A DNA stretch of 64,000 nucleotides from an uncultured Chloroflexia bacterium (GCA_963810725.1 CAWEOO010000008.1:588189-652188), one strand, 5' to 3'; shown: positions 6,843-63,453, numbered from the stretch's first letter. Numbers and translations are program-made. Notes: a model not told the origin generated them from the sequence alone.

Positions 6843-7216
6843 GGCGCCTCGACCGTCCAGCTCCGGCCACGGCAGACCAGGTACAGCTCGTCGAGCTCGG
6901 CGCCCTCGGCGGTCAGCGCGACCAGCCGGCCGGTCCGGCACAGCCCCTCGCGCTCGGCGAAGATCGAGTCGAGGACGGCGTGCTGGCCGGGCGGCAGGTC
7001 CACGAGCTTCTCGATGCCCCCGTCCGGGCGCTCGTACACGATCGTCACGGTCGCCGAGTCGATGCCGTTGCTGATCGTGACGCCGTTGGCCGGGTCGCCG
7101 GACGGCAGCGGCGGCACCGTCGGCGACAACCGGCCGAGCACGGCCCACGCGACGACCAGGGTGACCAGCACGGCGAGCAGTGCAAGGACCGCTGCTCGAC
7201 CGCGAAGGCGACTCAC
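6839..7216 (-). CDS. membrane-anchored hypothetical protein
   Basis: ORF 6839..7216. The GTG start overlaps the stop of the upstream peptidase gene (GTGA). It has a single N-terminal TM helix (AAVLALLAVLVTLVVAWAVL). Confidence 0.5.
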   Translation of the reverse strand: MSRLRGRAAVLALLAVLVTLVVAWAVLGRLSPTVPPLPSGDPANGVTISNGIDSATVTIVYERPDGGIEKLVDLPPGQHAVLDSIFAEREGLCRTGRLVALTAEGAELDELYLVCRGRSWTVEAP

Positions 7217-9210
7217 GGCGTCCCGGAACCCTCCCCCGGCGGCTCCTCGAGAAGGTGCGTCCGCAGGAATTGCAGGATCCGCTCGAACGCGTCGCGCCGG
7301 TTCTCGCGACGCTCCCAGCCATGGCCTTCATCGTCGTACCAATGGACCTCGTGGGTCTTGCCCTCGATCTCGAGCGCCTCGACCATCCGCTCGGTCATGA
7401 GGGGCACGACACGCTTGTCCTTGCGGCCATGCAGGATCAGTACGGGTGCCTCGATCCGCTCGGCCCGGTAGACCGGTGAGCCGCGCCGGAAGAGCTCGGT
7501 CCGCACCGGGTCGTCGGGCGTGCCCATCATCTTGAGCAGATCCAGGCGCCCCGGCCGGTCACCGTGGCGGAAGCTCTCGGCGATCTCCGAGTCGCCGTAC
7601 AGGTCGACCCCGGCGGCGAACATCGCCGGCTCCTCGACGAGAGCGCACAGGACCATGTAGCCGCCGTACGAGCCACCGAAGACCGCGAGGCGGCCGTCCG
7701 ACCATGGCTGGTCCCCCGCCCAGCGGCCGGCGTCGATGAGGTCGTGGACGTCGGCGTGGCCCCATTCGTCGTGATTGGCCTGGCGGAAGTCCCGGCCGTA
7801 GCCCGTCGAGCCGCGGAAGTCGACGTCCAGGAAGGCGAAGCCTTCGCGCGCCAGCAACAGCTTGAACGGCTGGAAGCTGCGGTACGCCTGCCAGGTCGGT
7901 CCGCCGTGCGGGTAGATGACGGTCGGTACGCGCTTGCCGCCGCGCTTTCCGGTCGCGGCGCTCGGCCGCCACAGTGTGCCCTCGACGCGCAGGCCGTCGC
8001 GCGCCGTGATCGCGATCCGCTCGCCGGCCGGCACGCGGCCCGGACTCAGGCTCGAGGCCAGGACGGCGGGCCGCGAATCGGTGACCTGGCGCGGTCGGGC
8101 GCCGTCGGGGGCTGCGCCCGGGACGGGCAGGAGCCACAGGTCCTGGGGCCGGGTCTCACTCTCGCCGATCGCTGCGACCCAGGCACCGTCGGGCAGCCAG
8201 CCGACGGGCCGCCACACGCCGTCCCAGGGCGAGATCCGCTCGGCCTTGGTGGTCGCCGCCACGGTCCGTGGGGCCTTGGGCGGTCGGCCGCGGCCGCGCT
8301 TGGGCCGCTCTCCATCGCCCAGGCCGCGCACGATCACGTCGATGAGGCCGTCGTGGACCTCGATATGGGCGACCCGGCTGCCGTCCGGGGACGGCAACGG
8401 GACGTACCCGACGCCGCCCGATGGCTCGCCATGCTCGCGCTCCCCGTCGGTGAGGACGATGCGGTCTCGGCCATCGGGCGAGCGGCGCACGACCTGGTAC
8501 CAGCCATCGGCATCTGACACGTAGAGAAGCGAGCCGTCGGGCGCCCACTGGGCGCCGGTATCGTGGCTGCGCTCGCCTGCCACGACCTCGCTCTTCCCGG
8601 TGGCGACGTCGACGAGCGCGATCTGCGACGTCGTGAGGTCCTCGGGCGATTGCTGGGCCATGACCGCCATCCGGCTGCCGTCCGGGGACCAGACCATCTG
8701 CTCGACATCGATGCCGCTGGGGGTCAACGCCGCAGCCTTCGGCGGACGCGGGTCGCGTTGCGGACGCCCGCGCCGCGGCACGGGAGCATCGATCAGCCAG
8801 ACCTGCGACCAGCCGCGCCGCCGCGAGAGGAACGCGAGCCGCCGCCCATCCGGCGACCACTGCGGATCGCGGCCGCCGCCGGGCTTGGGGACCACCTTCG
8901 TGAACCGGGATCCGTCCGCCTCGACGATCCAGATCTCCTCGTCCCGAACGAAGGCCAGGCGCCGCCCGTCCGGCGACCATTGGGGTTCGCCGACCGCTTT
9001 CTCCGACGCGGTGATCTGGGTGGCGGGCGCGCCCGTGCCGCGCAGCGACAGCGTGAACAGCTGTCGGGCACCGGCCATCTCGGCCGTGTAGGCGACCGTC
9101 CGCTCGCGCGGATTGATGCGGAATTCCCTAGGCGACTCGACCGCCACGATCCCCTCGATGGTGAGGCCGGCGGCGCCCGTCGCGGCGCCCGGGTTGCGAT
9201 CGGTCGGCAT
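7213..9210 (-). CDS. S9 family serine peptidase (prolyl oligopeptidase/acylaminoacyl peptidase type) with N-terminal PD40 beta-propeller
   Basis: ORF 7213..9243. It has repeated WSPDG(R/S) propeller motifs, then the alpha/beta hydrolase part with GGSYGGYM (nucleophile Ser), D and H (EGHGW). The ATG at 9210 overlaps the upstream stop by 1 nt (TGATG). Confidence 0.85.
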   Translation of the reverse strand: MPTDRNPGAATGAAGLTIEGIVAVESPREFRINPRERTVAYTAEMAGARQLFTLSLRGTGAPATQITASEKAVGEPQWSPDGRRLAFVRDEEIWIVEADGSRFTKVVPKPGGGRDPQWSPDGRRLAFLSRRRGWSQVWLIDAPVPRRGRPQRDPRPPKAAALTPSGIDVEQMVWSPDGSRMAVMAQQSPEDLTTSQIALVDVATGKSEVVAGERSHDTGAQWAPDGSLLYVSDADGWYQVVRRSPDGRDRIVLTDGEREHGEPSGGVGYVPLPSPDGSRVAHIEVHDGLIDVIVRGLGDGERPKRGRGRPPKAPRTVAATTKAERISPWDGVWRPVGWLPDGAWVAAIGESETRPQDLWLLPVPGAAPDGARPRQVTDSRPAVLASSLSPGRVPAGERIAITARDGLRVEGTLWRPSAATGKRGGKRVPTVIYPHGGPTWQAYRSFQPFKLLLAREGFAFLDVDFRGSTGYGRDFRQANHDEWGHADVHDLIDAGRWAGDQPWSDGRLAVFGGSYGGYMVLCALVEEPAMFAAGVDLYGDSEIAESFRHGDRPGRLDLLKMMGTPDDPVRTELFRRGSPVYRAERIEAPVLILHGRKDKRVVPLMTERMVEALEIEGKTHEVHWYDDEGHGWERRENRRDAFERILQFLRTHLLEEPPGEGSGTP

Positions 9211-10269
9211 CAGGCTCTCGGCCAGTCGGCCACCGCGCACCACCGCCCGAGCATCGCGAGGTGCTTGCGGACGTGGCCGTGCAGGCAGTCCTGCGCCCAG
9301 CTCCAGCCGTCCGGGGAGCGAAGGTCCTCGATGGTGAGCGTCTCGACCGCCGCGAGGAGCGCGGCCCGCTCGTTGTCGTAGCGGGCCAGCGTCGCGGCCG
9401 GGCTCTCGTCACGCGCGGCGATGACGTGCCGCTCGTTCCAGGCGTCGATGCCTTCGTCCGGATCGGCGAGCCAGGTGCCGGTGGCGTGGAAGACCTCGAT
9501 GGCGCGGGCCCCTTCGAGCGCCCAGTCGGCGAGGTGGCCCACATGATCGCGGAGCGTCCAGCCCGGGGTGATCTCCTCGCCACTCCAGCGGTCGGGCGGG
9601 ACGGTTCGGACAAGCGCGTCGAACTGCGCGCCGATAGCCGCCTCCTGCACGCGGAAGCCCGCATGGTCGGGCGCCCGCGGGTCCGCGACGAACGGATCGC
9701 CATCGACCTGGCGGAGGCGGAGGGTTTCGGTCCACGGCTCGACGACCGCGAGGTGATCGAGGTAGTGGCCGTGCAGGACGAAGTACACCCAGCCCCAGGC
9801 CTCGTGGCCGCGGATCGTCTCGGGCGTCAGGCGCTGCGCCGCCGCGAGGAGGCGGGGCCGGGCGGCGGTCGAGGCGCGCCAGGATCGCCTCGGCCGACAT
9901 CGTCGTCCAGGGCGCCCGGCGGCGCTCGTTGTAGCGATCGAAATCGCCCCCGTCGTAGTCGTCGTCCGACGGCCAGCGGCCTGTCCCGATTGCCAGCGGG
10001 ATGTAGTCGGCCGCGAGCTCCTGCCAGTCGGCGATGTGGCCGATGTGCTCCGCGAGCGACCAATCCGGCCCGCCGGCATCCGACGGCGCGGCGCCGGGCA
10101 GATGCCAAGCGGCGTCGTCCAGGCCCGCCCACGACACCACGAGGCGATCCCAGGTGGCGGCCTCATCGGCCCAGAGATCCCGCTCCGCGCTGCGCAGGTC
10201 GAGGGCACGGACGTCCGCGAGGCTGGCCCGGCGAAGGTCGATCCTCGGCGTCGTGGTCGTGGCCGTCAT
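9210..10269 (-). pseudogene. tandem DinB-like domain protein, frame interrupted near 9855-9866
   Basis: The first half, MTATTTTPRIDL...WSLAEHIGHIADW...SAEAILARLD, lies in the frame of ORF 9409..11262. The continuation RPRLLAAAQRLTPETIRGHEAWGW...LRDHVGHLADW... is ORF 9210..10208. The break is in the run GGGGCCGGGCGGCGG. The ATG overlaps the proC stop (ATGA). Confidence 0.6.
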
Positions 10270-23371: not shown

Positions 23372-23380
23372 GAGCATCCC

Positions 23381-25030
23381 GTGGCGACCACCGTCCTGCA
23401 CCCCGCCGCTCCGACCTACCGCAGCAGCCTGTACGACTGGGTGACGACCACCGATCACAAGAAGATCGGGATCCTGTACGTCGTGAATTCGTTCCTGTTC
23501 TTCTTCATCGGCGGGATCCTGGCCCTGCTCGTACGCACGGAGCTCGCGGTCCCGGGCCTGCAGTTCCTGACGGACCAGACCTACAACGAAGTCTTCACGA
23601 TGCACGCGACGCTGATGATCTTCCTGTTCATCATCCCGATGCTGGCCGGCTTCGGGAACTACGTCGTCCCGCTCCAGATCGGGGCGCCCGACATGGCCTT
23701 CCCGCGCATCAACGCGCTGTCGTTCTGGATGCTGCCGCTCGGCGGGTTCCTGATCCTGCTGGGGTTCGTCACAGGCGGCGCCGCGGCGGCCGGCTGGACG
23801 TCCTACAGCCCGCTGGCCCAGGACCGCCCATTGGCCTCGGTCGGGTCCGGGCAGGACCTGTGGATCGTCGGGCTCGCCCTCGTGGGCACGAGCTCGATCC
23901 TGGGCGCGGTCAACTTCCTCGTCACGATCTTCAAGATGCGCGCCCCGGGAATGACGCTGTTCCGGATGTCGCTGCTGACGTGGACCGTCCTCGTGACCGC
24001 CGTGCTCGTGCTGCTGGCCACGCCGGTGTTCACGAGCGCCGTGATCATGCTGTTCATCGATCGCAACCTCGGCGGGAGCTTCTTCGATCCGGCCAACGGC
24101 GGCGACGCGATCCTCTACCAGAACATCTTCTGGTTCTACTCGCATCCGGCCGTCTACGTGATGATCCTCATCGCGATGGGCACGGTCAGCGAGATCCTGC
24201 CCGTCTTCAGCCGCAAACCCCTGTTCGGGTACAAGGCGTTCGTCTTCGCGACGGTGGGCATCGGTGCGCTCGGCTTCTCCGTGTGGGCGCACCACATGTT
24301 CACGACCGGCGCGGTGTACCTGCCGTTCTTCAGCCTCATGACGTTCCTGATCGCCGTCCCGACCGGCGTGAAGTTCTTCAACTGGATCTTTACGATGTGG
24401 CGCGGCCAGCTCCGCCTGGCCACACCCCTCCTCTTTGCGCTCGGCTTCCTCACGATGTTCCTGATCGGCGGCATCAACGGGGCCTTCAGCGCGTCGGTGC
24501 CCGTCGACTTCGCGCTCCACGACACGTACTTCGTCGTCGCGCACATCCATTACGTGCTCTTTGGAGGGTCCGTGTTCGGGGTGATGGCCGGCCTCTACTA
24601 CTGGTTCCCCAAGATGACCGGCCGGATGCTCAACGAGACCCTGGGCAAGGTCCAGTTCGTGCTGATGTTCATCGGGTTCAACCTGACGTTCTTCCCGATG
24701 CACGAGCTGGGGCTGTCGGGCATGCCGCGGCGCATCGCCGACTACTCGTCGACGGCCGGCTGGAACGACCTCAACCTGGCCGCCACCATCGGTGGCTTCC
24801 TCATCGCCGCCAGCATGGTGCCGCTGCTGTGGAACGTCTTCGTCTCGCTGCGCAGTGGCCAGATCGCCGGCGACGACCCGTGGGAGGGCAACACGCTCGA
24901 GTGGGCGACCACGTCGCCACCGCCGCCGTACAACTTCGACCGGCTGCCGGAGATCCGCTCGGAGCGACCGGTGTTCGACGTCCGCCACGGTCCCAAGCCG
25001 GGCTCGGCTGTTGCCCAGACGGAGCACTGA
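23381..25030 (+). CDS. ctaD: cytochrome c oxidase subunit I
   Basis: ORF 23381..25030. It is a 12-TM protein with WFYSHPAVYVMIL, HHMFTTG and HDTYFVVAHIHYVL. Confidence 0.95.
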   Translation: MATTVLHPAAPTYRSSLYDWVTTTDHKKIGILYVVNSFLFFFIGGILALLVRTELAVPGLQFLTDQTYNEVFTMHATLMIFLFIIPMLAGFGNYVVPLQIGAPDMAFPRINALSFWMLPLGGFLILLGFVTGGAAAAGWTSYSPLAQDRPLASVGSGQDLWIVGLALVGTSSILGAVNFLVTIFKMRAPGMTLFRMSLLTWTVLVTAVLVLLATPVFTSAVIMLFIDRNLGGSFFDPANGGDAILYQNIFWFYSHPAVYVMILIAMGTVSEILPVFSRKPLFGYKAFVFATVGIGALGFSVWAHHMFTTGAVYLPFFSLMTFLIAVPTGVKFFNWIFTMWRGQLRLATPLLFALGFLTMFLIGGINGAFSASVPVDFALHDTYFVVAHIHYVLFGGSVFGVMAGLYYWFPKMTGRMLNETLGKVQFVLMFIGFNLTFFPMHELGLSGMPRRIADYSSTAGWNDLNLAATIGGFLIAASMVPLLWNVFVSLRSGQIAGDDPWEGNTLEWATTSPPPPYNFDRLPEIRSERPVFDVRHGPKPGSAVAQTEH

Positions 25031-25034
25031 GCCG

Positions 25035-25700
25035 ATGACCACCGAAAGCCACGCCCTCACGACCACCGACCACAGCCCGGTCGCGGGGCTCAGCCACGAC
25101 ACGTCGGGCGGCATCAGCAACGTCGTCCTGGGGATGCTCCTGTTCCTCACCTCGGAGGTGATGTTCTTCGCCGGGCTGTTCGCGGCCTACTTCGCGGTTC
25201 GGGCCAAGACGGAGCTATGGCCGCCGATCAATCCCGAGACCACCCCGCCGGTGCAGTTCCATCTCGAGATCCTGCCGCTGGTCGGGCCCGCGACCGTGAT
25301 CCTCATCCTGTCGTCGTTCACCTGCCAGTTCGCGGTCTGGGCCATCCGGCGCGGCGATCACGTCGCGTTCGTTCGCAACATCGCGGTGACCTTCCTGATC
25401 GGCGTCACCTTCCTCGTGATGCAGGCGATCGATTACGCGGAGCTCGGCGCGGAGGGGCTGACGATGGCGTCGGGCCCGTACGGCACGACGTACTTCACCC
25501 TGACCGGCTTCCACGGCGCGCACGTGTTCGGGGGCGTGGTGATGCTCGGGGTCGTCCTCTACCGTGGCATGGCCGGGCAGTTCTCGGCCCGCCACCACGA
25601 TGCGGTCGAGGCGACGTCGCTGTACTGGCACTTCGTCGACGTGGTCTGGATCCTGCTCTTCTCGCTGCTGTACCTGCTGCCCGGCAAGGGCCACATCTGA
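25035..25700 (+). CDS. ctaE: cytochrome c oxidase subunit III
   Basis: Frame of ORF 24792..25700 from ATG 25035. Motifs: LFLTSEVMFFAGLFAAYF, TGFHGAHV, YWHFVDVVWI. Confidence 0.9.
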   Translation: MTTESHALTTTDHSPVAGLSHDTSGGISNVVLGMLLFLTSEVMFFAGLFAAYFAVRAKTELWPPINPETTPPVQFHLEILPLVGPATVILILSSFTCQFAVWAIRRGDHVAFVRNIAVTFLIGVTFLVMQAIDYAELGAEGLTMASGPYGTTYFTLTGFHGAHVFGGVVMLGVVLYRGMAGQFSARHHDAVEATSLYWHFVDVVWILLFSLLYLLPGKGHI

Positions 25701-29220: not shown

Positions 29221-29248
29221 CCGGCGGCCGCACGGCCGGGACACCAGG

Positions 29249-30532
29249 TCAGCCGCCGGGTGCCTCCCCGGGCTCCGGAAGGTCGCGCAGCCGGAGGACC
29301 CGCGAACCGAGCAGCCAGACGACACCCAGCGTCGCTGCGATCGACACGACGAACAGTGCCGCACGGACGCCGATGGCGGCACCAAGCAGCCCGCCGAGCA
29401 GCGCCCCGATCGGCCGCACCCCGTAGTTGATGAATCGGAAGGCGCCTGACGAGCGCGACCGGATCCGGTCCGGGATGCGCGCCGACATGATCGCGCCAAT
29501 GTTGATGTCCAGGATCATCACGCCGAGTCCGGCGGCGAACTCGTAGGCGAACAACAGGCCCAGGATCACCGGCATCGGCAGGCCTGCATCCGCGACCGGC
29601 ACGAGGATGAGGGGCAGGGTGAACAGCACGCAGCCCAGGGCGTACGCAGGCCCCAGGCCGATCCGTCGTCCCACCTTGCTCGCGATGACCGCACCGATCA
29701 GGCCACCGACCGCGCCGGAACCGAGCACCAGACCGAGGATCCCCGGCGCGACGCCGAGTTCCGTGGTCGTGTACAGGATGAAGAGCGCGGCGAACGCGAG
29801 GTTGAACAGGTTGATCGTCGCGACGGCGAGCAGGGTCGGCCGCATGATCGGGTCGCGCAGGATGAAGGCGAGGCCCGCCAGGAGCCGTTCCCGGAGACCG
29901 CCCTCTTCGTGCTCGATGGGCGGCTCGGGAGACCGGATCCGGCGCAGGAAGAGGACCGAGCCCAGATACGAGAACGCGTCCGCGAGCATGGCGAGCGGCG
30001 CCCCGAGCACCTGGACGAGCGCACCCCCGACCGTCGGCCCGGCCACATACGCCATCGACCGGCTGCCGTTCAGCAGCGAGATCGCGTCCACGAACCGCTC
30101 GCGACGGACGACGGCGACGAACACGGCGTTCCAGGACAGGTCGAAGACGACGGCGAGGGTGCCGCTGAGGAAGCCGACCACGTAGAGCTGTGCCATGCTC
30201 AGCGCACCGAGCACGTAGGCCATCGGGACCGTGGCGATCAACGCTGCTCGCCCGATGTCCGCCCAGATCATCAGCCGGCGACGCTGACGCACACGATCGA
30301 GCCAGATGCCGGCGGGCATCGAGAACAAGAGGTGCGGCAGGAGCCCGACCGCCGTCAGGTATCCCATCTCCGCGGCGTCGGCACCGAGCGTCAGGACGGC
30401 GACCAGCGGCAGGCCGATGCGCGACACCTCGTCGCCGAAGACCGAGATCGTCTGGCCGATCCAGAGTCGCCGGAAGTCGGCGACGCGGCGCAGGAGCGGC
30501 GGGACGAGCCGCGCGGGTCGCACCCGCATCAA
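29249..30532 (-). CDS. MFS transporter
   Basis: ORF 29249..30532. About 12 TM segments, with an N-terminal FRRLWIGQTISVFGDE motif typical of EntS/macrolide-efflux-like MFS proteins. Confidence 0.8.
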   Translation of the reverse strand: MMRVRPARLVPPLLRRVADFRRLWIGQTISVFGDEVSRIGLPLVAVLTLGADAAEMGYLTAVGLLPHLLFSMPAGIWLDRVRQRRRLMIWADIGRAALIATVPMAYVLGALSMAQLYVVGFLSGTLAVVFDLSWNAVFVAVVRRERFVDAISLLNGSRSMAYVAGPTVGGALVQVLGAPLAMLADAFSYLGSVLFLRRIRSPEPPIEHEEGGLRERLLAGLAFILRDPIMRPTLLAVATINLFNLAFAALFILYTTTELGVAPGILGLVLGSGAVGGLIGAVIASKVGRRIGLGPAYALGCVLFTLPLILVPVADAGLPMPVILGLLFAYEFAAGLGVMILDINIGAIMSARIPDRIRSRSSGAFRFINYGVRPIGALLGGLLGAAIGVRAALFVVSIAATLGVVWLLGSRVLRLRDLPEPGEAPGG

Positions 30533-30678
30533 CGTCGGTCAGCCATGTCTGGCGGATGGTAGGTCGGGCCACGATGGTCGTGTGATGGCTGCACGATGGC
30601 GGCCCGTCGGCCACCGCACGGATCGATGCTGACGCCGACCCACCGTGAACGTTCGGGTCACCGTCCGACTCATAGAGA

Positions 30679-31269
30679 GTGACCGCGGCGACATCCGACG
30701 CGGCGGCGGAGGGAGCATCCGTGCTGGAGTTGGTCGAACGGGCTCAACGCGGGGAGCGCGAGGCATTCGCGGCGCTGGTCGGGATGATCAGCGACCGGAT
30801 GTACGCGCTGGCCGCTCGGATCCTGCGCGACAACGACCTCGCTGAGGACGCGTTGCAAAGCGCCCTCATCACGGCCTGGCGCCAGCTGCCCACCCTCCGG
30901 GACCCGGACCGCTTCGAAGCCTGGGTCCGCAAGGTGCTCGTCCATGCCTGCTACGCCGAGGCCAGGCGTCGCCGGTCGTGGACGGCCAACGTCCGAGTGC
31001 TGCCGGTCGACGGGCCGGCTGGCCCGGATGAGCTGCTCTCCGTCGTCGATCGCGATGCGCTCGATCGGGCGTTCAGACGCCTGTCGATCGAGCAACGCGC
31101 GGTCTTCGTCCTGCACCACCACCTGGGCCTTCCGCTCGTCGAGATCGCCGACGCGCTCGGCATCCCGGCGGGCACGGCCCGCTCCCGACTCCATTACGCG
31201 ACGCGGGTGCTGCGTGCGGCCATCGAGGCCGACGCCGCTCCGGTCGCCCCCGAAGGACGGATGGCATGA
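30679..31269 (+). CDS. ECF sigma-70 factor (module 1)
   Basis: ORF 30679..31269. Region 2 is GEREAFAALV...AEDALQSALITAWRQL and region 4 is IEQRAVFVLHHHLGLPLVEIADALGIPAGTARSRLHYA. The stop overlaps the next ATG (ATGA). Confidence 0.85.
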   Translation: MTAATSDAAAEGASVLELVERAQRGEREAFAALVGMISDRMYALAARILRDNDLAEDALQSALITAWRQLPTLRDPDRFEAWVRKVLVHACYAEARRRRSWTANVRVLPVDGPAGPDELLSVVDRDALDRAFRRLSIEQRAVFVLHHHLGLPLVEIADALGIPAGTARSRLHYATRVLRAAIEADAAPVAPEGRMA

Positions 31270-32549
31270 GCAACGAACGCGACTTCGACCGGATCGCCCG
31301 AGCCTGGCTCGACCTTGGTCCGGATGAGGCACCCGATCGCGCCGTGGCCGCCGTCCTCCAGGCCGTTGAGACGACGCCGCAGGTTCGGCGACCGTGGATC
31401 CGGCCATCCAGGAGGTTCCCGATCATGAATTGCGTTGCGACCCTGGCCGCGATCGCGGCCGCCCTCGTCATCGCCGTCGGCGGTGGCGCCCTGCTCCTCG
31501 GCAGACCGGCAGACGACCCGAACGTCGGCGTCCCGGTGAGTCCGTCACCCTCCGCCAGCCCCTCCGGATCCATTCCGACGGCGTTCCGTCACGTATGGCT
31601 CGGGGAATTGCGCGCTGTCGTGGGCATCGACACCGACCGTTCATTCCTGGGGTTCACGGCCGATGAAGTCACCTATCTGGATACCCTCGCTTCCGTGGCG
31701 TCGATGTCGGCGCCAGATCGCCTCACGCTCACCTTGAAGGTCGCCCGCAATGGATGCGAGGCCGGCGACGTCGGCACCTACACCGTGGCGCTCTCTCCCG
31801 GCGGGACCAAGCTCAACCTGGCCGCGATCGATGAGGCCTGCTCCGCGCGCCGCGACGCGATGGCCGGGGACTGGCTCAGGTCCGACTGCCTCGACCCCGA
31901 GAACTTCTGCCTCGGTGAGCTCGAGGCTGGTGAATATCCGTCGTTCTTCTTCACGCCACGTCTGGGTCCGGACGACCCATGGGCGCCGGACTGGGGGGCT
32001 CTTCGATACACCGTCCCCGACGGCTGGGCGGCGACCTCCGACTGGCCGGAGCGCTATGAGCTCGAGCCCGCCGACTGGTACGCGTCCAATCGAGGCGACG
32101 TGGCCCGCGAGATCCGGGGCATCTACGTCATGTCCAGGATGGGCGCCTTCGACCATACGCCGACGTGCGACGCCGGCGCGCTCGAGAGCGTCGGACGATC
32201 GCCGGACGCCCTCGTGGCCTGGCTCGAGGATCATCCCGCGCTCGTTCCGGCGACGGCGCAGGACATCACGATCGACGGGCGGGCCGCCCAGATGATCGAC
32301 GTCAGCCTCGTTCCCGGCTGGACGGCAGGATGCCCGGGGGACCCGACACCCAGAGCGATCCTGTTCGGACTGGACGGCGAAGGGGCAGATGGCCGGCAAT
32401 GGGGTCCGCTGGAGGGGATGAAGCAGCGCTACGTCCTGTTCGATCTCGATGGCGACACGATCCTGATCGCGATCGGCTCGAGCGCGGACCGCTTCGACGA
32501 ATTCGTCGCCGACGCGATGACCATCGTGGAGTCGATGACCTTCGAATGA
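31266..32549 (+). CDS. single-pass membrane partner of ECF sigma (putative anti-sigma) with Cys-rich extracytoplasmic domain
   Basis: ORF 31266..32549. About 55 cytoplasmic residues precede the TM helix VATLAAIAAALVIAVGGGALLL. A Pro/Ser linker leads to a domain of about 330 aa with 8 Cys. Confidence 0.55.
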   Translation: MSNERDFDRIARAWLDLGPDEAPDRAVAAVLQAVETTPQVRRPWIRPSRRFPIMNCVATLAAIAAALVIAVGGGALLLGRPADDPNVGVPVSPSPSASPSGSIPTAFRHVWLGELRAVVGIDTDRSFLGFTADEVTYLDTLASVASMSAPDRLTLTLKVARNGCEAGDVGTYTVALSPGGTKLNLAAIDEACSARRDAMAGDWLRSDCLDPENFCLGELEAGEYPSFFFTPRLGPDDPWAPDWGALRYTVPDGWAATSDWPERYELEPADWYASNRGDVAREIRGIYVMSRMGAFDHTPTCDAGALESVGRSPDALVAWLEDHPALVPATAQDITIDGRAAQMIDVSLVPGWTAGCPGDPTPRAILFGLDGEGADGRQWGPLEGMKQRYVLFDLDGDTILIAIGSSADRFDEFVADAMTIVESMTFE

Positions 32550-32606
32550 GCATCGACGGGGCGGGCGGATCGGGAACGGTCCGCCCACTCCCCGATGCCG
32601 CAGCGA

Positions 32607-32635
32607 GAACCGTTCACGCGACACGAACGCCATAC
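32607..32635 (+). promoter_or_regulatory. candidate ECF-type promoter (GAAC-N17-CGCCATAC) upstream of module 2
   Basis: GAAC is at 32607-32610 and CGCCATAC at 32628-32635. The same two boxes with identical 17-nt spacing occur upstream of module 3, although the spacer sequence differs. Confidence 0.3.
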
Positions 32636-32666
32636 CCTGTGAGCACGACCACGAGGGTCGTGCCGC

Positions 32667-33245
32667 ATGTACGAGGCGACCGTGGACCAGCGAGGGCTCG
32701 TGGAGCGCGCACGTGGAGGCGATCATGACGCCTTCGCCGAGCTCGCCCGTGCGGCCGTCGTGCGGCTGGACCAGGCCGCCCGTCTCATCCTCCGCGACCC
32801 CGAGCTCGCACGCGACGCGGTCCAGGAGGGGCTGATCCGGGCCTGGCGGGACCTCCCGAAGCTTCGAGATCCCGACCGGTTCGATGCCTGGCTGCATCGA
32901 CTCACCGTCAACTCCTGCATCGACCAGACACGCCGCCGGCGACGGCGGGTGATCGAGGTCGAACTGACGCCCATCCACGCACCGTTCACGTCCGACATGT
33001 CCGGTGCGCTCGCCGATCGAGACCAGGTCGACGGAGTGCTTCGGCACCTCGACGAACGTGGCCGCGCGATCGTGGTCCTGCACTACTTCCTGGGGATGCC
33101 GTTGACCGAGGTCGCGGCGACCCTGGGCATCCCGGTCGGAACGGTCAAGTCGCGACTGCATCGCGCCCTGGGCGAGATGCGGGTCGCGGTCGCCGCTGAT
33201 CCGACCACGACTCCATCGCCCGTGTCCGGAGGGCAGCTCGTATGA
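32667..33245 (+). CDS. ECF sigma-70 factor (module 2)
   Basis: ORF 32667..33245. It has the same architecture as module 3 and is highly similar to it (LILRDPELARDAVQE.LIRAWRDLP.LRDPDRFDAWLHRLTVN). It may start at the GTG at 32679. The stop overlaps the next ATG. Confidence 0.85.
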   Translation: MYEATVDQRGLVERARGGDHDAFAELARAAVVRLDQAARLILRDPELARDAVQEGLIRAWRDLPKLRDPDRFDAWLHRLTVNSCIDQTRRRRRRVIEVELTPIHAPFTSDMSGALADRDQVDGVLRHLDERGRAIVVLHYFLGMPLTEVAATLGIPVGTVKSRLHRALGEMRVAVAADPTTTPSPVSGGQLV

Positions 33246-34552
33246 CGACCGAACGTCGCCTCGAGCGCGACCTCCCGTCCATCCTGGGCGACCTCGCGAT
33301 GGGCCCCTACCCCGAATACATCGATGACGTCCTCACGACCACGGCGCGTCAGCGCCAGCGGCCGGCCTGGACGTTCCCTGAAAGGTGGCTTCCCGTGGAA
33401 CTGACGACCCCTTCGGTCTTCCGATCGGCCCTTCCTTGGCGCCAACTCGGCGTCCTCGCGCTCATCGCGCTCCTCATCGCCGCCGCCGTGGCCGCGTTCG
33501 TTGGTTCGAGTCAGCGGCTCCCGGCCCCGTTCGGCCCGGCAGCGAACGGCGTCGTTGCCCTCGTGGATGGAAGCGGCGCCATCCAGCAGGTTCACCCGGT
33601 GACCGGCACCGCCATCGTGATCGTCCCGGGACCCGGCAACAGCCGTCCGACCTATTCCCCGGACGGATCCAGGCTCGCGTACTTGCGTGAGACTCCGAAC
33701 GCTTCGTTCGACCTCGTCGTCGCCCGATCGAACGGTCAACAACCCGTCACGATCACGCCGGAGCCGCTCACCTCGGTGGGGTATCTCGGATGGTCGCCCG
33801 ACAGTGCGAGCGTCGTGATCTCGGTCCCGGCCGGCCGACTCGAGGCCTACGATGTGTCATCGCCGGGCGCACCTCGCGTAATCACGGTCGAGGGCCAGCG
33901 GCTCGGATCCAAGGGCGTCGACGACTTCAACGGCAGTATCCCGGACATCTTCCGGCCCCCGACCGGGGAGGAGATCCTGTTCCTTGGCTCATCGGCCGGG
34001 GGCTCGGCGCTCTTCGTGGCCGATGCCGATGGGACGAATGCCCGAGCGATCCTCGACCGTGACCGATCGGCCGTCGCGTACTCCGATCTCGACGTTCCCC
34101 AGTGGTCTCCGGACGGGTCACGAATCGCCTTGGCGCTCGCGTCACCCGACGACCCGAACCAGTGGCGTATCCACGTGCTTAACGCCGATGGCTCGGGCCT
34201 CCGCGAGTTGAGCAAGGAGCCACAGCCTCGCTCGGAGGGGCACCCCTCGTGGTCACCAGACGGGACTCGGGTGGCCTTCCAGCGCTGGTTCAGCAACGAA
34301 TTGTGTGGGTCCTGCGAGACAAGACCGATCACTGTGGTCGGCGTGGACGACGGTGTCGAGATCGAGGTCGGGATCGTCAATGTGGATGGCTACCGCGGAT
34401 GGAGCTGGTCTCCGGACGGAACGGCTCTCCTCGCCGTGGCCCAGAACACCGACGAGAAGCGGCTCCAGATCGTGCCGTTGGACGGCGGCCCCCCGCGGTT
34501 CGTCGAGGTCATCCCCGAGTCTGCACCGAGCTGGCAGCGAACTTCGGACTAG
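33242..34552 (+). CDS. membrane-anchored PD40/TolB-like beta-propeller protein, putative anti-sigma partner (module 2)
   Basis: ORF 33242..34552. The N-terminal motif is RDLPSILGDL...RQRQRPAWTFPERWLPV, followed by the TM helix LGVLALIALLIAAAVAAFV. Repeated (Y/W)SPDG(S/T)R propeller motifs follow. Confidence 0.7.
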   Translation: MTTERRLERDLPSILGDLAMGPYPEYIDDVLTTTARQRQRPAWTFPERWLPVELTTPSVFRSALPWRQLGVLALIALLIAAAVAAFVGSSQRLPAPFGPAANGVVALVDGSGAIQQVHPVTGTAIVIVPGPGNSRPTYSPDGSRLAYLRETPNASFDLVVARSNGQQPVTITPEPLTSVGYLGWSPDSASVVISVPAGRLEAYDVSSPGAPRVITVEGQRLGSKGVDDFNGSIPDIFRPPTGEEILFLGSSAGGSALFVADADGTNARAILDRDRSAVAYSDLDVPQWSPDGSRIALALASPDDPNQWRIHVLNADGSGLRELSKEPQPRSEGHPSWSPDGTRVAFQRWFSNELCGSCETRPITVVGVDDGVEIEVGIVNVDGYRGWSWSPDGTALLAVAQNTDEKRLQIVPLDGGPPRFVEVIPESAPSWQRTSD

Positions 34553-34571
34553 AGGTTCCCGAGCCCGAGGT

Positions 34572-34600
34572 GAACGATTCCAACAACACGGACGCCATAC
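34572..34600 (+). promoter_or_regulatory. candidate ECF-type promoter (GAAC-N17-CGCCATAC) upstream of module 3
   Basis: GAAC is at 34572-34575 and CGCCATAC at 34593-34600. This is the counterpart of 32607-32635. Confidence 0.3.
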
Positions 34601-34645
34601 CCTGTCGAGCACGACCGCCATGGCCGTGCCGCAATCGAGGCGACC

Positions 34646-35209
34646 GTGAACCAGCGAGGCCTGATCGAGCGAGCGCGGCGAGGCGAGCATGACGCCTTCA
34701 CCGCGCTCATCGATGTCCACCTCGCGCGGCTGGACGCGGCCGCCCGCCTCATCCTCCGTGACCCGGAGCTCGCGCGCGACGCGGTCCAGGAGGCCCTCAT
34801 CCGCGCCTGGCGCGACCTGCCCGGACTTCGCGATCCGGACCGGTTCGACGCCTGGCTCCATCGACTGACCGTCAACGCCTGTCTCGACCTCATCCGGCGC
34901 CGTAAGCGCCGGGTCCTCGAAGTCGAGCTCAAGCCGATCGACTCCATGGCGACCCGCGACGTCGCCAGCGGGCTGGCCGATCGCGATCTCCTGGACCAGG
35001 CGCTTCGGCATCTGGAGCCCGGGCATCGCGCGGTCGTCGCCTTGCACTACCTGCTCGGGATGCCGCTGCCGGAGGTAGCGCGCGCCCTAAGCATTCCCCT
35101 GGGCACGGCGAAGTCACGACTGCACTACGCCCTCGCGGCGATGCGCACGACCGTGACCGCCGAACCGGAACCCGTTCCGACACCGCTCGTGGGAGGGCAG
35201 CTGGCATGA
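34646..35209 (+). CDS. ECF sigma-70 factor (module 3)
   Basis: ORF 34646..35209 (GTG start). Regions 2 and 4 are as in module 2. The stop overlaps the next ATG. Confidence 0.85.
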   Translation: MNQRGLIERARRGEHDAFTALIDVHLARLDAAARLILRDPELARDAVQEALIRAWRDLPGLRDPDRFDAWLHRLTVNACLDLIRRRKRRVLEVELKPIDSMATRDVASGLADRDLLDQALRHLEPGHRAVVALHYLLGMPLPEVARALSIPLGTAKSRLHYALAAMRTTVTAEPEPVPTPLVGGQLA

Positions 35210-36500
35210 CCTCACCGCGGCGCTTCGAACAGGACCTGCCGGCGCTCCTCGCCGACCTGTACCTGGCCCGGACCCCCGACTACCGAGATGACCTCGTCCG
35301 GCAGGTCGACCGCGTGCGGCAGCGGCCCGCCTGGACCTTCCCCGAAAGGTGGCTTCCCATGGATCTCGTCACGAAGGCGGCGCCCGCTTCGCCGCGGGTC
35401 CCGTGGCGCACGCTCGGTGTGCTCGGCCTGCTCGCCGCGCTCCTCGCGGCTGCGGTGGCCATGTACGTGGGCTCGCAGCCGCGACTCCCCGAACCGTTCG
35501 GCCTCGCCGCGAACGGCCTCATCGCCTATGACGACTCAGGCGACATCCTGGTCCGTGAGTCGACCACCGGGCCTGCCCGCGAATTGATCGGCGGCGACAC
35601 CGAGGATCACGACCCGTGGTTTACGCCCGACGGCACCCGGCTGACCTTCGTCCGGACGATCGATGACCGGGACTTCCTCATGGTGGCCGACGCCCACGGG
35701 GGCGGCATCCGACAAGTCGTCGATGATCCCCTCGTCGGACAGTGGGCGGCGTACGCGCCGGACAGTCGGTCCCTTGCGCTGGTCAACGAGATCAAGGGCA
35801 TCCCACGTCTGGCGATCATCCCGCTCGACGGAGGAGCTCCGCTGGAGATCGATCTTGATGGCGTGGTTCCGACCGACCTTGCATGGCGACCGCCGGACGG
35901 TCGAGAGCTGCTCATCCGCGGCAAGAATAGAGAATCAGACCGTCGACTTCTTCATCGTGAACGCCGACGGGAGCGGACTTCATCCTCTCGGTCTGGACCC
36001 GCACAAGAATTTCGGTCCGGGCTGGGACAACTCCGGGCCCGTCTGGTTCCCCGATGGCTCAAGGATCGCGTACAACGTCGTCGAACCGGCCAACGTGGAG
36101 AACGGTGGGTACTGGCGGGTCCACACCGTCGGGGCGGACGGCAACGGCCGATCGTGCCTTGCCTGCTCTGTCCGATCGATCGATCCAGGAGAACTGGCCC
36201 ACGGTCTCGCCTGACGGTAAGAACATCCTCGTTCACCGTTGGAAGTGGGATACGGCCGAGAACGGGTGGCTGGCCGTCATGCCAGCCGATGGTTCCGCGG
36301 TGGCCCGAGACATCGGGCCGAAGGTGAAGGGCGGAGTCGACACCGGCCTTGTCAAGGCGTGGTCCCCGGACGCATCGACCGTCCTGCTCCGTGCCGGCAA
36401 CTCCGGCCAGTCGTGGTCCATCGACCCATTGACCGGCGAGTATGTCGAGCTCGCCTGGGGGACAGACGCCCTGCCGGACTGGCAGCGCCGAGCGCGCTGA
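35206..36500 (+). pseudogene. PD40/TolB-like beta-propeller anti-sigma partner (module 3), two frame breaks (about 35927-35932 and 36146-36152)
   Basis: ORF 35206..36327 gives the N-terminal motif QDLPALLADL...RQRPAWTFPERWLPM, a TM helix and the first blades up to LLIRGKN. The continuation ENQTVDFFIVNADGSGL...HTVGADGNG is in ORF 35663..36214. The last blades (WPTVSPDGKNIL...WSPDASTVLL) are in ORF 36054..36500. Confidence 0.6.
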
Positions 36501-36530: not shown

Positions 36531-36560
36531 GAACCCCGGGTTGGTCGGGACCCGGGGTTC
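36531..36560 (-). terminator. GC-rich hairpin, likely intrinsic terminator downstream of tRNA-Met
   Basis: GAACCCCGGGT-tggtcggg-ACCCGGGGTTC forms an 11-bp stem. On the minus strand it is followed by TTCCTTGTCC. Confidence 0.5.
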
Positions 36561-38037
36561 AGGAAAAGGCGTTGGTTGCGGGGACTGGATTCGAACCAGT
36601 GACCTTCGGGTTATGAGCCCGACGAGCTGCCGCTGCTCCACCCCGCTCGGAGATGATAGGTAGCGAGCCCGATTCGGTCAAATGCCGGGCAGCGCGGCCT
36701 CGCTCGCGGGCGGCCGGCCAGCTCAGGCGGCGCCCGCCGATCGCGAGGCCCACGACCAGCGTGATCATCATGACCGCGCTGAACACGTAGAACGGGTACA
36801 GGATGTTCCGCTCGGCCAGGACGCCGGTGCCGAGCGAGGCGGCGATGAACCCGAGCGTGCCCGCGGCCCCGAACAGGCCCTGCGTCGTCGAGGAGCGCCC
36901 CGGTGGTGAATTCGCCGCAACGACCGCGTACAGGGCCGGGTTGAGGAACGCGAAGCCGGTCGCCTCGACGAGGATCAGCGGGACGGACAGGACCGGATCG
37001 GACAGGAACGTGTACAGGATGCCGGTAACGGCGGGCAGGACGCAGCCGAGGACGATGAACGCCATCGACCCCCGCTTGTCGATGATCCGGCCGGCGATCG
37101 GCGACAGGACCAGGACCGGCAAGCCGAACATCGCGAACGTGAGCCCGATGAGCGGCAGGTCCGCCCCGAGCCCTTCCAGGAAGAGGCTCCAGATGACCTC
37201 GTACGTGCCGCCCCCGTAGTACCCGCCCAGATTGATGATGAGCGCGGCGATGAGCCCCCGGTTGAGCAGCCGCATCGCCCGGGAGGGCCTCCCCGGCGTA
37301 TCCGCGGCGAGGTCCGCCGCGAGGCGGCCCTCGATGAAGGGCGAGTCCGGCGGCAGGGTCGTGACGTCCGGGGACCGCGTCCCGTGGGCCTGGCGCTGGT
37401 AGCCCTCCTCGCGGACGCGCAGCGCGATGCCAACGGCCGCGACCACCGCCGCGATCGCGCTGAACACGAACACGAAGGCGATGCCCCCGAACTGGGCCGC
37501 CCCGAACGCACCGATCGTCGGGCCCAGCAGCAGCCCGCCCATCTGGGCCGCCCCGTACAGGCCGAACGCCTCGCCGCGCCGGTCCGGCGGCGTCGCGTCG
37601 GTCAAGAATCCGCGTGCCGCAGGGTCGTAGATGGCGGCACCAAGGCCGGCGCCCGCGCGCAGCAGCACGAACGCCACGGGCCCGGTCAGGACGAGCGGCA
37701 GCGCCCCGAAGACGCCGGTGGCGATAAGGCCGATAACCATCAACGGAACCCGCTCCGTGCGGTCCGCCAGCCAGCCGAAGATCGGCTCGCTGACGAGCCG
37801 GGCGGCCGGCCATGCTGCGATGACGATGCCCAGGGTCGCGAGGTCGACGCCCTGCTCCGCGAAATACAGCGGCAGCACCGGCAGCAGGCCGCCGAATCCC
37901 AGCCAGACGACGAATTCGGCGACGAGCAGCGGGGCGATGCCGCCCCATCGGTCGAGCCACCCCGACCATCGACGACCGAGCCCGGACGAGGCCTCGGGCG
38001 GGTTCGGGGCGACGGGTTGTGGCAGGCTCGGCGACAT
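36559..38037 (-). CDS. MFS transporter (3' end uncertain; the open frame reads through the tRNA-Met gene)
   Basis: C-terminal 492 codons of ORF 36559..39195 from ATG 38037 (MSPSLPQ). About 12 TM segments, with MFS loop motifs GWLADRTERVP and PIAGRIIDKRG. The upstream part of the ORF is antisense to the ABC ATPase gene. Confidence 0.75.
   Translation of the reverse strand: MSPSLPQPVAPNPPEASSGLGRRWSGWLDRWGGIAPLLVAEFVVWLGFGGLLPVLPLYFAEQGVDLATLGIVIAAWPAARLVSEPIFGWLADRTERVPLMVIGLIATGVFGALPLVLTGPVAFVLLRAGAGLGAAIYDPAARGFLTDATPPDRRGEAFGLYGAAQMGGLLLGPTIGAFGAAQFGGIAFVFVFSAIAAVVAAVGIALRVREEGYQRQAHGTRSPDVTTLPPDSPFIEGRLAADLAADTPGRPSRAMRLLNRGLIAALIINLGGYYGGGTYEVIWSLFLEGLGADLPLIGLTFAMFGLPVLVLSPIAGRIIDKRGSMAFIVLGCVLPAVTGILYTFLSDPVLSVPLILVEATGFAFLNPALYAVVAANSPPGRSSTTQGLFGAAGTLGFIAASLGTGVLAERNILYPFYVFSAVMMITLVVGLAIGGRRLSWPAARERGRAARHLTESGSLPIISERGGAAAARRAHNPKVTGSNPVPATNAFS
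36573..36647 (-). tRNA. tRNA-Met (CAU), initiator type
   Basis: The reverse complement folds as a cloverleaf: (A)GCGGGG acceptor, TAGCTC-type D arm, anticodon arm TCGGG-CTCATAA-CCCGA with three consecutive G:C pairs, T arm ACTGG-TTCGAAT-CCAGT, and an encoded CCA. Positions 1 and 72 are unpaired (A/A), as expected for an initiator tRNA. Confidence 0.9.
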
Positions 38038-38187
38038 GGGACCGGGGCTACGGGTCGGCGGGTCAGCGTAGCCGACGAGCGTCGCCCGGCTGCGGCTCCG
38101 GATGCGCCCGGCAGGACGGCGGGCCGTTAACACGCAAGCCCTATACTCGGGTCTCCGACCGACCGTAACCCAGGGGTGCGCCACCGC

Positions 38188-39176
<989 letters not shown>

Positions 39177-39180
<4 letters not shown>

Positions 39181-39992
39181 CCGCACGAACGACATCCGCG
39201 CCGAGCGGCGGAATCGGCCGGTCGATCACCGACGGCCTCCTGGTGGGCTGGCGAAACCTCAAGCGCATCCCCCGCATCCCCGAGCTGGCGATCTTCGCCA
39301 TCCTCCAGTCGATCATGTTCGTGCTGCTGTTCGTGTTCGTGTTCGGCGGCGCGATCAACGTGCCGGGCGATTACACGTCGTTCCTGATGCCCGGGATCTT
39401 CGCCCAGACGATCGTCTTCGCCTCCGGTACGACGGCGATCGGCATGACCGACGACGTCAACAAGGGGATCATCGACCGGTTCCGGTCGCTGCCGATGTCG
39501 CGCTCCGCCGTCCTGACCGGCCGGACGTTCTCGGACGTCATCTACAACGCCGGGATCCTCGTCGTCCTGATGCTGACCGGGTTCGCCATCGGCTGGCGCG
39601 TCGAGAACATCCCGTCGCTCGTGGCGGGCTTCGCGCTGCTGCTGTTCTTCGCCTATGGGATGGTCTGGCTCGGCGTCTGGCTGGGATTGAACGTCCCGAC
39701 GGTCGAAGTCGGCCAGCAGGTGATCTTCACGGTGCTCTTCCCGATCACCTTCATCTCGAACGTGTTCGTCCCGGCTTCGACGTTGCCGACCTGGCTCCAG
39801 CCGGTCGCGGAGTGGAATCCGACGAGCACGCTGACGGCCGCCCTGCGCGAGATGTGGGGTTACCCCACGCAGCGCGTGTCGGACAGCCTCGCCTCGACCC
39901 AGCCCGCGCTCGTGACGATCGTCTGGGTGCTCATCTTCATTGCGATCTTCGCGCCGCTCGGAGTGCGCCGCTATCGCTCGATGAGCCGCTGA
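39177..39992 (+). CDS. ABC-2 type transporter permease (DrrB-like)
   Basis: ORF 39177..39992. It has six TM segments and its start overlaps the ATPase stop. Confidence 0.8.
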
Positions 39993-50945: not shown

Positions 50946-55552
<4,607 letters not shown>

Positions 55553-55642
55553 CGGCTGCCTCCGGGGCGAGCTGTGGGGACGGAGCTGCGGCCGATCGGG
55601 GCTTGGGAGGAGCCTCCCGATCGGCCGCGAGCCCGGGTGGGG

Positions 55643-60615: not shown

Positions 60616-60719
60616 GAGAATGGGTTCTCCTTGCCTGGGGGCCGGTGTCCTGCATCCTGTGGTCGGACGCGGAGGACGCCGTTGATACGGCGGTGACCCT
60701 CTCAGGGATGACTCCGCGC

Positions 60720-61130
60720 TTACGGCGTGACCGTGACGACGCCCTTCATGAAGTCGTGACGTGCGCAGTAGAACGGGTAGGTACCCTCGTCGGTGACGGT
60801 GTATGAGAACTCGACGCCGGTATCGATCTCGCCCGAATCGAAGAGTCCGGAAGGGCTCGCAGGATCGCCGGATGTCACGGTATGGAGGGAGTCCTCATCG
60901 TTGACCCACGTGACCGTCGTCCCGACCGGCACCGTGAGGTCGTCCGGTGCGAAGGCGAAGCCCTTGATGCTGATGGCATCGACCATCCGGCCGTCGGATG
61001 CCGGGCCCGACGCGGCCGGAGTCGGCGCTGTCGTGGGCTCGGCCGTTGCCGCCGGGCTGGCGCATCCGGCGACCGCCATGAACGCGACGAGGGCGAGGCT
61101 CGCTCGAGCGAGCGCGAGGATATGGGGCAT
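60720..61130 (-). CDS. blue (type-1) copper lipoprotein, amicyanin/plastocyanin-like
   Basis: ORF 60720..61130. Lipobox AVAGCA. The cupredoxin has VTWVNDEDSLHTV (His ligand) and the loop YPFYCARHDFMKG (C-x2-H-x2-M). Confidence 0.8.
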   Translation of the reverse strand: MPHILALARASLALVAFMAVAGCASPAATAEPTTAPTPAASGPASDGRMVDAISIKGFAFAPDDLTVPVGTTVTWVNDEDSLHTVTSGDPASPSGLFDSGEIDTGVEFSYTVTDEGTYPFYCARHDFMKGVVTVTP

Positions 61131-63378: not shown

Positions 63379-63453
63379 TGGCGAGCCGGGTGGGATTCGA
63401 ACCCACGACACAGGGATTAAAAGTCCCCTGCTCTGCCGCTGAGCTACCGGCCC
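63379..63453 (-). tRNA. tRNA-Lys (UUU)
   Basis: The reverse complement is GGGCCGG-TA-GCTCAGCGGCAGAGC-A-GGGGA-CTTTTAA-TCCCT-GTGTC-GTGGG-TTCGAAT-CCCAC-CCGGCTC-G-CCA. It forms a full cloverleaf with an encoded CCA. Confidence 0.9.

Follow-up and report, generated by a model that had tools for sequence, protein, structure and literature searches.

Three consecutive pairs of genes, each made up of a gene for a sigma factor of the extracytoplasmic function (ECF) type followed by one for a membrane protein, raise the question of whether these membrane proteins are the cognate anti-sigma factors of the sigma factors encoded immediately upstream and, if they are, which part of them would hold the sigma factor and which part would sense the signal. 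According to open reading frame (ORF) calling, the pairs follow one another directly from 30.6 to 36.5 kb on the + strand of a 64-kb stretch of DNA with a G+C content of 70.6% (hereafter, the window) from an uncultured Chloroflexia bacterium (GCA_963810725.1, CAWEOO010000008.1:588189-652188). Pairs of ECF sigma and anti-sigma factors form the third of the major modes of signal transduction in bacteria, and synthetic biology employs them as orthogonal switches. We conclude that each pair (module) of this array quite probably constitutes an autoregulated two-gene operon that encodes an ECF sigma factor together with a cognate single-pass anti-sigma factor and sensor. The array contains the following genes:

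30679-31269, + strand: ECF sigma factor 1, 196 amino acids (aa), GTG start (Pfam and NCBIfam)
31266-32549, + strand: partner 1, 427 aa, in ATGA overlap with sigma 1
32667-33245, + strand: ECF sigma factor 2, 192 aa from ATG 32667 or 187 aa from GTG 32682
33242-34552, + strand: partner 2, 436 aa (PD40, AlphaFold, Foldseek)
34646-35209, + strand: ECF sigma factor 3, 187 aa, GTG start (Pfam and NCBIfam)
35206-36500, + strand: partner 3, with the architecture of partner 2, read through three frames (tblastn)

Sigma factors, membrane partners and their joint inheritance

All three sigma factors match the Sigma70_r2, Sigma70_r4_2 and Sigma70_ECF models of Pfam, and they score 69-85 bits against TIGR02937 (69 for sigma 1), for which the cut-off is 42.9. 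With sigma2 and sigma4 domains within a length of 187-196 aa, they correspond to ECF (group IV) sigma factors, and their closest solved structures are those of the ECF sigmas SigE, SigW and SigL. The best NCBIfam model, TIGR02983 (Streptomyces SigE family), gave 106-122 bits, below its cut-off of 141.55. The tandem modules are old paralogues, their sigma factors being 45-67% identical and their ectodomains 17-40% identical to one another. At all three junctions the sigma and partner genes overlap in an ATGA with a GGAGG-like sequence just before it, and the spacers between modules measure 117 and 93 bp, in agreement with the roughly 100 bp, on one strand, reported in the initial annotation. 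Its description of three sigma genes, each coupled through ATGA to a single-pass membrane protein, holds for the sigma genes and the overlaps but not for partner 3 as a single ORF.

The pairing extends well beyond the window. Our set of related loci has 85 members, namely 80 metagenome contigs found by N-terminal patterns and the loci L001-L005. Co-conservation with the sigma genes, whose lack in relatives had been named beforehand as an argument against a sigma/partner relationship, is clear in this set: among 100 partner N-terminal domains, 92 are encoded directly downstream of a sigma gene, eight lie at contig ends and none is devoid of a sigma gene, so that a sigma gene stands upstream in 92 of the 92 assessable cases. 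The partner gene starts in an ATGA in 90 of 95 partner genes of related loci. Two to four modules were found in 7 of the 22 related loci of at least 6 kb, which indicates that tandem arrays are normal in this lineage and contradicts the suggestion of the initial annotation that such arrays are unusual.

The family itself is large. An exhaustive search with a profile of the 56 N-terminal residues retrieved 1071 clusters at 50% identity (E < 1e-10 for 508), and the domain almost always begins at residue 1; PD40 was detected by Pfam in 63 of 71 full-length proteins that carry it. Partner 2 has at least 3547 homologues, nearly all from soil-type metagenomes, and its full-length matches in genomes come from metagenome-assembled genomes (MAGs) of Chloroflexota. 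The partner 1 family comprises at least 288 proteins, the few named ones belonging to MAGs of Chloroflexota or Candidatus Limnocylindrales. The organism from which the window derives is a Chloroflexota from soil, of the Limnocylindria type. A full-length alignment search of genome contigs was dominated by generic WSPDG propeller matches and left only L003-L005 as true full-length relatives, and a separate homologue search with the 56-residue N-terminal alignment yielded only 18 short fragments, uninformative about the ectodomains. Several proteins (P0149, P0288, P0316, P0317, P0377 and P0386) carry the partner N-terminal domain at residues ~170-240, behind a sigma-sized part, and P0149 (624 aa) combines Sigma70_r2 with a partner-1-like body; these proteins are either merged gene calls over the ATGA overlap or true sigma/anti-sigma fusions.

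In the AlphaFold model of partner 2 (built from 82 sequences, with a predicted local distance difference test score, pLDDT, of 86.9), cytoplasmic residues 1-53 are followed by a transmembrane helix at residues 66-89 and a PD40 beta-propeller at residues 105-430. The N-terminus forms helices at residues 5-19 and 26-36 and continues with an invariant motif, RQRPAWTFPERWLP, in a stretch modelled as disordered, as expected if it takes up its fold upon contact with a binding partner. The model of partner 1 (pLDDT 84.4) has the same N-terminal layout, with two helices, the conserved motif and a transmembrane helix at residues 56-72, beyond which a Pro/Ser linker leads to a two-part ectodomain. The N-terminal helices of the partner models are of low confidence (pLDDT 53-73). 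The N-termini of partners 1 and 2 align in register (hhalign probability 72%, E 3.5e-5), and this cytoplasmic region, rather than the ectodomain, is the most conserved part of the partners. For partner 1, no match was found in Pfam or NCBIfam, and the C-terminal half of its ectodomain has a PsbP/LpqN/DcrB-like fold (Foldseek template-modelling score TMt about 0.55). Calling this protein Cys-rich, as had been done, overstates the presence of 7 cysteines in 427 residues, although 6 of them are invariant in the family alignment. The PD40/TolB-like propellers predicted for modules 2 and 3 are borne out, in partner 2 by a PD40 match with E 1.6e-13 (Pfam) and by Foldseek, whose top PDB matches are the propellers of TolB and S9 peptidases, and in partner 3 by weak PD40 matches of each of its pieces.

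More specific assignments of partner 2 were rejected. Identity with TolB is contradicted by a score of 60 bits against TIGR02800 (cut-off 343), with 63 residues matched, and by its anchoring in the membrane behind a sigma gene; an S9 peptidase is contradicted by the end of the protein at the propeller, with no catalytic alpha/beta-hydrolase domain. The window does encode a true S9 peptidase with a TolB-like propeller (7213-9408, - strand), which the initial annotation had connected with the partners through PD40. The shared propeller type stands, but it amounts to generic repeat similarity (only 28% identity with partner 2), and we discarded a specific kinship between the two.

When pairwise identity matrices were compared over 45 complete modules, the sigma factor correlated strongly with partner residues 1-53 (r = 0.86; partial r = 0.82 controlling for the ectodomain) whereas the ectodomain showed a much weaker correlation with it (r = 0.44; partial r = 0.12). 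In these modules, sigma factors are on average 67% identical, N-terminal domains 57% and ectodomains 31%. A concrete case is found in the contig L001, syntenic with the window between 24.8 and 42 kb at about 85% nucleotide identity. Sigma 1 and L001 sigma A are 82% identical; sigma 2 shares 94% identity with sigma B, and the N-terminus of partner 2 shares 83% with its counterpart in partner B. By contrast, the transmembrane helix and propeller of partner 2 match those of L001 partner C at 76-83% identity, whereas identity with those of partner B is only 31-41%. The sigma factor encoded ahead of partner C is in turn orthologous to sigma 3 (88%), and the N-terminal domain of partner C is that of partner 3, with 91% identity over the 53 N-terminal residues. 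This swap has its breakpoint near residue 53, past the cytoplasmic domain and ahead of the transmembrane helix. In partner 1, the ectodomain past residue 98 has no detectable counterpart in L001. Exchange is recurrent in the family, since ectodomains are <45% identical in 18 of 35 module pairs with sigma factors at least 85% identical, and sigma factors are <72% identical in 5 of 20 module pairs with ectodomains at least 65% identical. The module B propeller of L001 (7403-9333) is also in pieces (gene calls of 190 and 78 aa) and, being 31% identical to either window propeller, adds a third type of sensor at this site in the chromosome.

Taken together, the co-variation, the L001 swap and the recurrent swaps indicate that the sigma factor and the 53-residue domain act as one unit with an exchangeable sensor, and inheritance as one unit is what would be expected if that domain is the sigma-binding anti-sigma domain. 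The family appears, from these sequence comparisons, to evolve by keeping the sigma factor and the anti-sigma domain together while exchanging the transmembrane helix and sensor between units. The expanding sensor family suggested by the initial annotation thus finds support as an expanding and diversifying one, with more than 1000 clusters at 50% identity, ectodomains of 31% mean identity and sensors repeatedly swapped.

The same data bear on whether the partners are anti-sigma factors at all. They might instead be membrane-anchored, TolB- or peptidase-like envelope scaffolds, co-transcribed as the first target of a sigma factor that is itself controlled elsewhere, an idea that agrees with the lack of a recognised anti-sigma domain and with the resemblance of the propeller to those of TolB and S9 peptidases, which act in the envelope. 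We consider it very unlikely: conservation is highest in the cytoplasmic N-terminus and not in the ectodomain, it is the N-terminus and not the ectodomain that tracks sigma identity, two unrelated ectodomain types (PD40 and that of partner 1) share a related N-terminus and both occur behind a sigma gene, and the partners have no catalytic domain. Given the strict pairing (92/92) and the tracking of sigma by the N-terminus (r = 0.86), it is very probable that the partners are cognate anti-sigma/sensor proteins, as the initial annotation had supposed.

Upstream elements and proposed mechanism

Promoters by which ECF sigma genes are autoregulated carry AAC in the -35 box and CG in the -10 box, upstream of the sigma gene. 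The following elements precede the three sigma genes:

30647-30675, + strand: candidate promoter of module 1, TGAACGTTC ... CTCATAG, read from the sequence
32607-32634, + strand: promoter-like motif of module 2, GAACC-N16-CGCCATA, exact match
32643-32663, + strand: leader hairpin of module 2, GCACGACC-ACGAG-GGTCGTGC, followed by the Shine-Dalgarno (SD) sequence GAGG and GTG 32682
34572-34599, + strand: promoter-like motif of module 3, GAAC-N17-CGCCATA, exact match
34609-34629, + strand: leader hairpin of module 3, with one A.C mismatch, weak in this copy

The complete upstream block reads GAACC-N16-(GA)CGCCATAC(CC)TGT, followed by the hairpin GCACGACC-loop-GGTCGTGC and then by CGAGGCGACC-GTG-GAC-CAG, and it is conserved before sigmas 2 and 3 as well as before the sigma genes of 57 of 70 related loci. 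Judged by its sequence, GAACC...CGCCATA looks like an ECF -35/-10 pair, and this promoter-like pattern occurs twice in the 64 kb, both times before a sigma gene (2 and 3). Because the SD and GTG context is kept across the family at the start region of sigma 2, translation of this gene more likely begins at GTG 32682 than at ATG 32667. Module 1 has a different motif, TGAACGTTC ... CTCATAGAGAGTG (30647-30681), in an arrangement also present upstream of the orthologous sigma A in L001; its -10-like box ends ~4 nt before the GTG, and this short distance suggests a leaderless sigma 1 transcript.

In the family alignment of the hairpin, 90.6% of the cells are paired and 6 of the 8 pairs have changed on both sides, values that none of 500 shuffles reached, and slid controls pair at most 44% of the cells. 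The module 2 copy folds with -21.2 kcal/mol (z = -2.2), the module 3 copy folds no better than shuffles, and no Rfam family corresponds to the leader hairpin. This covarying stem-loop, situated between the putative -10 box and the SD sequence, is conserved across the family (loci L001-L162). Its role could be to protect the mRNA at its 5' end, by stabilising it, or to regulate expression. One may also imagine that the inverted repeat is not an RNA hairpin but a DNA operator bound by a separate repressor, so that a third factor would control expression, and the element is indeed palindromic and located just downstream of the putative promoter. This seems improbable to us, since both arms change with pairing kept (at one position, AU becomes GC in 9 sequences; two-sided changes in 6 of 8 pairs), a pattern more in line with a structural constraint than with a sequence fixed for recognition by a protein, and no regulator gene is conserved beside the modules.

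For the anti-sigma/sensor modules we propose the following mechanism. The partner N-terminus (~55 residues, with two helices and an extended motif of the RQRPxWxFPERW type) would sequester its own sigma factor, contacting its sigma2 and sigma4 domains and holding it at the membrane. One transmembrane helix would join this segment to an extracytoplasmic ligand-binding domain, predicted to be a TolB/S9-like PD40 propeller in modules 2 and 3 and a disulfide-bonded beta domain plus a PsbP-like domain in module 1. A ligand or envelope signal at the ectodomain would then inactivate the anti-sigma factor, most likely, by analogy with further anti-sigma factors of the single-pass kind, through regulated proteolysis. 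The freed sigma factor would transcribe its own operon from GAACC-N16-CGCCATA, by way of the hairpin leader, and probably also targets elsewhere in the genome. The tandem modules presumably operate as insulated channels for different signals.

Several observations weigh against this interpretation. Support for sigma binding by the partner N-terminus is indirect, and the correlation between sigma factor and N-terminus could partly stem from the physical linkage of adjacent segments. The N-terminal domain has no Pfam match even at E = 10 and no PDB sequence match by profile, so that it is not assignable to a known anti-sigma class, and class I anti-sigma domains exceed it in length. As for the putative promoter, its -10 element reads CGCC and not the usual CGT, and the 64-kb window contains no further copies of the motif, so that no regulon members were found locally. 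Finally, partner 3 and sigma 4 (the sigma gene of a further module at 61 kb) are frame-shifted, and two modules may therefore be non-functional here.

Comparison with known systems

We compared the modules with the ECF classification 2.0 (Casas-Pastor et al. 2021) through the group descriptions of its supplement. Non-two-component subgroups of ECF39, from Actinobacteria, are described there with single-pass putative anti-sigma factors at position +1 that may carry PASTA domains or a WD40 propeller, and ECF266, from Firmicutes, with a beta-propeller anti-sigma factor (bioRxiv 10.1101/2019.12.11.873521). As far as these descriptions go, both groups resemble the window in having an ECF sigma factor followed at +1 by a putative anti-sigma factor with one transmembrane helix and a WD40-like propeller, so that the architecture is already known in outline. 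According to the same descriptions, they differ in distribution, ECF39 being 100% actinobacterial and ECF266 100% from Firmicutes whereas the window family is found in Chloroflexota/Limnocylindrales MAGs, and in promoters, which read CAACC..CGTC in ECF39 and TGCAACA..ACTCT in ECF266 but GAACC-N16-CGCCATA here. A CGCC -10 box appears in none of the groups as listed in that supplement, and none of the Chloroflexi-containing groups (ECF247, ECF271, ECF213s1 and the ECF25 subgroups) matches by its description there. The possibility, raised in the initial annotation, that the sigma factors fall into a well-described group with this exact architecture is consequently true in outline for ECF39 and ECF266, but taxon, promoter motif and anti-sigma domain are different.

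Class I anti-sigma domains have ~100 residues in four helices, often with a zinc motif, and class II domains have ~50 residues in two helices that contact sigma4 and sigma2 (PMC7406223). With the class I proteins RseA, RsiW and RskA, the partners share an N-in topology, a single transmembrane helix, an extracytoplasmic sensing part, a co-transcribed gene overlapping that of the sigma factor and a putatively autoregulated operon. However, their domain has ~55 residues and two predicted helices, with no Cys/His motif and no match to zf-HC2 or RskA. A class I domain was accordingly discarded as an assignment, given the absence of a Pfam match at E = 10 and of a PDB profile match and the presence of two helices instead of four. 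In size and helix count, the modelled N-terminal domain resembles class II more closely than class I, as it shows two predicted N-terminal helices in ~55 residues like the CnrY/NepR type, but no sequence similarity to class II was found and the partners add the invariant, non-helical RQRPxWxFPERW before the transmembrane helix. Moreover, CnrY works with a separate periplasmic sensor, CnrX, whereas the window partners carry a large ectodomain themselves (the propeller, in partners 2 and 3).

The propeller has its own parallels. TolB and S9 peptidases (acylaminoacyl/dipeptidyl peptidase type) have the same PD40-repeat fold, but the window partner has neither the N-terminal domain of TolB nor a signal peptide, and its propeller is anchored in the membrane after an anti-sigma-like domain. 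The planctomycetal sigmas of ECF57 and ECF01-Gob also use a WD40-like propeller as the sensory part of an ECF system; in these, it is fused to the sigma factor via transmembrane helices, in contrast with its location on a separate partner in the window.

It is possible, though on balance we would not count on it, that the modules represent an ECF group outside the current classifications, with a new short anti-sigma domain, its own promoter and structured leader, and recombination-borne sensor exchange. What is new is a large and unstudied Chloroflexota family that associates an anti-sigma-like domain missed by current models with a structured leader and with sensor exchange at a fixed junction. 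Were the modules such a group outside the classifications, the 5' leader would add a layer of post-transcriptional control, and the family would illustrate a "chassis plus plug-in" evolution in which homologous recombination at the anti-sigma/transmembrane junction moves highly divergent propellers between insulated sigma channels. For basic biology, the system extends a well-understood theme without a new principle. The family is large (the propeller type alone has more than 1000 clusters at 50% identity), and its bearers, uncultured Chloroflexota of soils, are abundant; it supplies a compact anti-sigma domain unseen by models and many naturally insulated, adjacent paralogous pairs. Sensor exchange at a defined junction that leaves the sigma/anti-sigma unit undisturbed would provide a design rule for chimeric sensors, and the ligands of the PD40 propellers could reveal what soil bacteria monitor at their surface.

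Frameshifts and genomic surroundings

Outside the array, the following features of the window are relevant to its integrity and limits:

36573-36647, - strand: tRNA-Met (CAU), initiator (ARAGORN; Rfam tRNA, 62.6 bits)
61247-61832, + strand: ECF sigma factor 4, frame-shifted once between regions 2 and 4
61823-63373, + strand: partner 4, a 516-aa membrane protein of another type than partners 1-3
2-154, - strand: fifth ECF sigma gene, N-terminal 51 codons (hmmsearch E 1.6e-11, jackhmmer E 2.2e-8)

Iterative searches recovered exactly the five ECF sigma genes counted in the initial annotation, at 2-154 (- strand, truncated by the window start), 30679, 32667, 34646 and 61247. The further module that it placed at 61247-63373 does contain a sigma gene, but a frame-shifted one, with Sigma70_r2 only in the first frame, region 4 in the ORF 61539-61829 and the shift near 61670-61680. 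Its partner 4 does not match the N-terminal profile of partners 1-3 and has a weakly PepSY-like C-terminus (Pfam PepSY E 4e-4, below the cut-off). Within the array, partner 3 consists of three colinear segments that match partner 2 in frames +1, +2 and +3 by tblastn (35206 to ~35930, ~35933-36146 and ~36150-36500), separated by two frameshifts near 35930 and 36148; it is either a pseudogene or a gene carrying assembly indels.

Comparable breaks occur in other genes of the window. The housekeeping gene gltB (glutamate synthase large subunit, 50949-55642, - strand) is split over two frames, near 52340 and at profile position about 245: its first ORF contains GATase_2, Glu_syn_central and positions 52-246 of the Glu_synthase profile, and the second contains positions 244-368 of that profile and GXGXG. 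That a gene of this kind is frame-shifted suggests that some indel errors are left in the assembly. A frame-plot of G+C at third codon positions (GC3) missed the known shifts of partner 3 and served as a lead only, the split of gltB being then revealed by Pfam. In the region 23372-25700 (+ strand), the COX1 ORF stops at 25030 and COX3 homology resumes at ~25122, in another frame and from profile position 76. L001 has a single fused COX1-COX3 protein of 839 aa, and the difference in the window could be a frameshift or real.

These breaks invite the view that the array is decaying, module 3 and the 61-kb module 4 being real pseudogenes and modules 1 and 2 alone working. The two frameshifts <250 nt apart in partner 3, the one in sigma 4, the mismatch in the leader hairpin of module 3 and the intact state of long neighbouring genes (phosphoenolpyruvate carboxylase, 962 aa, and COX1) speak in its favour. 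We nevertheless find decay rather unlikely, because gltB is likewise split by a frameshift, the COX1-COX3 fusion of L001 is interrupted in the window, the window is part of a metagenome-type contig of 1.8 Mb and broken genes are many on related long contigs, all of which makes residual assembly indels at least as likely as pseudogenes.

Beyond partner 3, the tRNA-Met at 36573-36647 shows CAU, a C1xA72 mismatch, A11:U24 and a GGG/CCC anticodon stem, features that identify it as an initiator tRNA. The array had been described as directly abutting tRNA-fMet; the nature of the tRNA stands, but it lies on the - strand, convergent with the array and 72 bp past the end of partner 3. The adjacency looks like plain synteny, common only to the close relative and devoid of signs of a functional link. 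A genomic island at the tRNA was considered and not retained: the G+C content (66-70% versus 72-74%) is only mildly lower, L001 has the locus in synteny, and an integrase was not observed. A tRNA-Lys (63379-63453, - strand) follows the stop of partner 4 by 5 bp, and both sigma/partner arrays of the window thus end at a convergent tRNA gene. A long ORF for a major facilitator superfamily (MFS) transporter (36559-39195, - strand) runs through tRNA-fMet on the same strand before reaching a stop, and the L001 partner C protein (P0001) likewise extends into the antisense tRNA; gene callers therefore over-extend both the MFS ORF and L001 partner C.

At the other end of the array, another MFS gene (H+ antiporter family; 29249-30532, - strand) lies immediately upstream of sigma 1 and is missing at the syntenic position of L001, where window positions 29236-30668 have no counterpart between 4507 and 4597. 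Near the 61-kb module, a 422-aa lipoprotein-like protein (59347-61130, - strand) is made of two tandem ~190-residue copies of one sequence, and a small cupredoxin-like protein (60720-61130) adjoins it.

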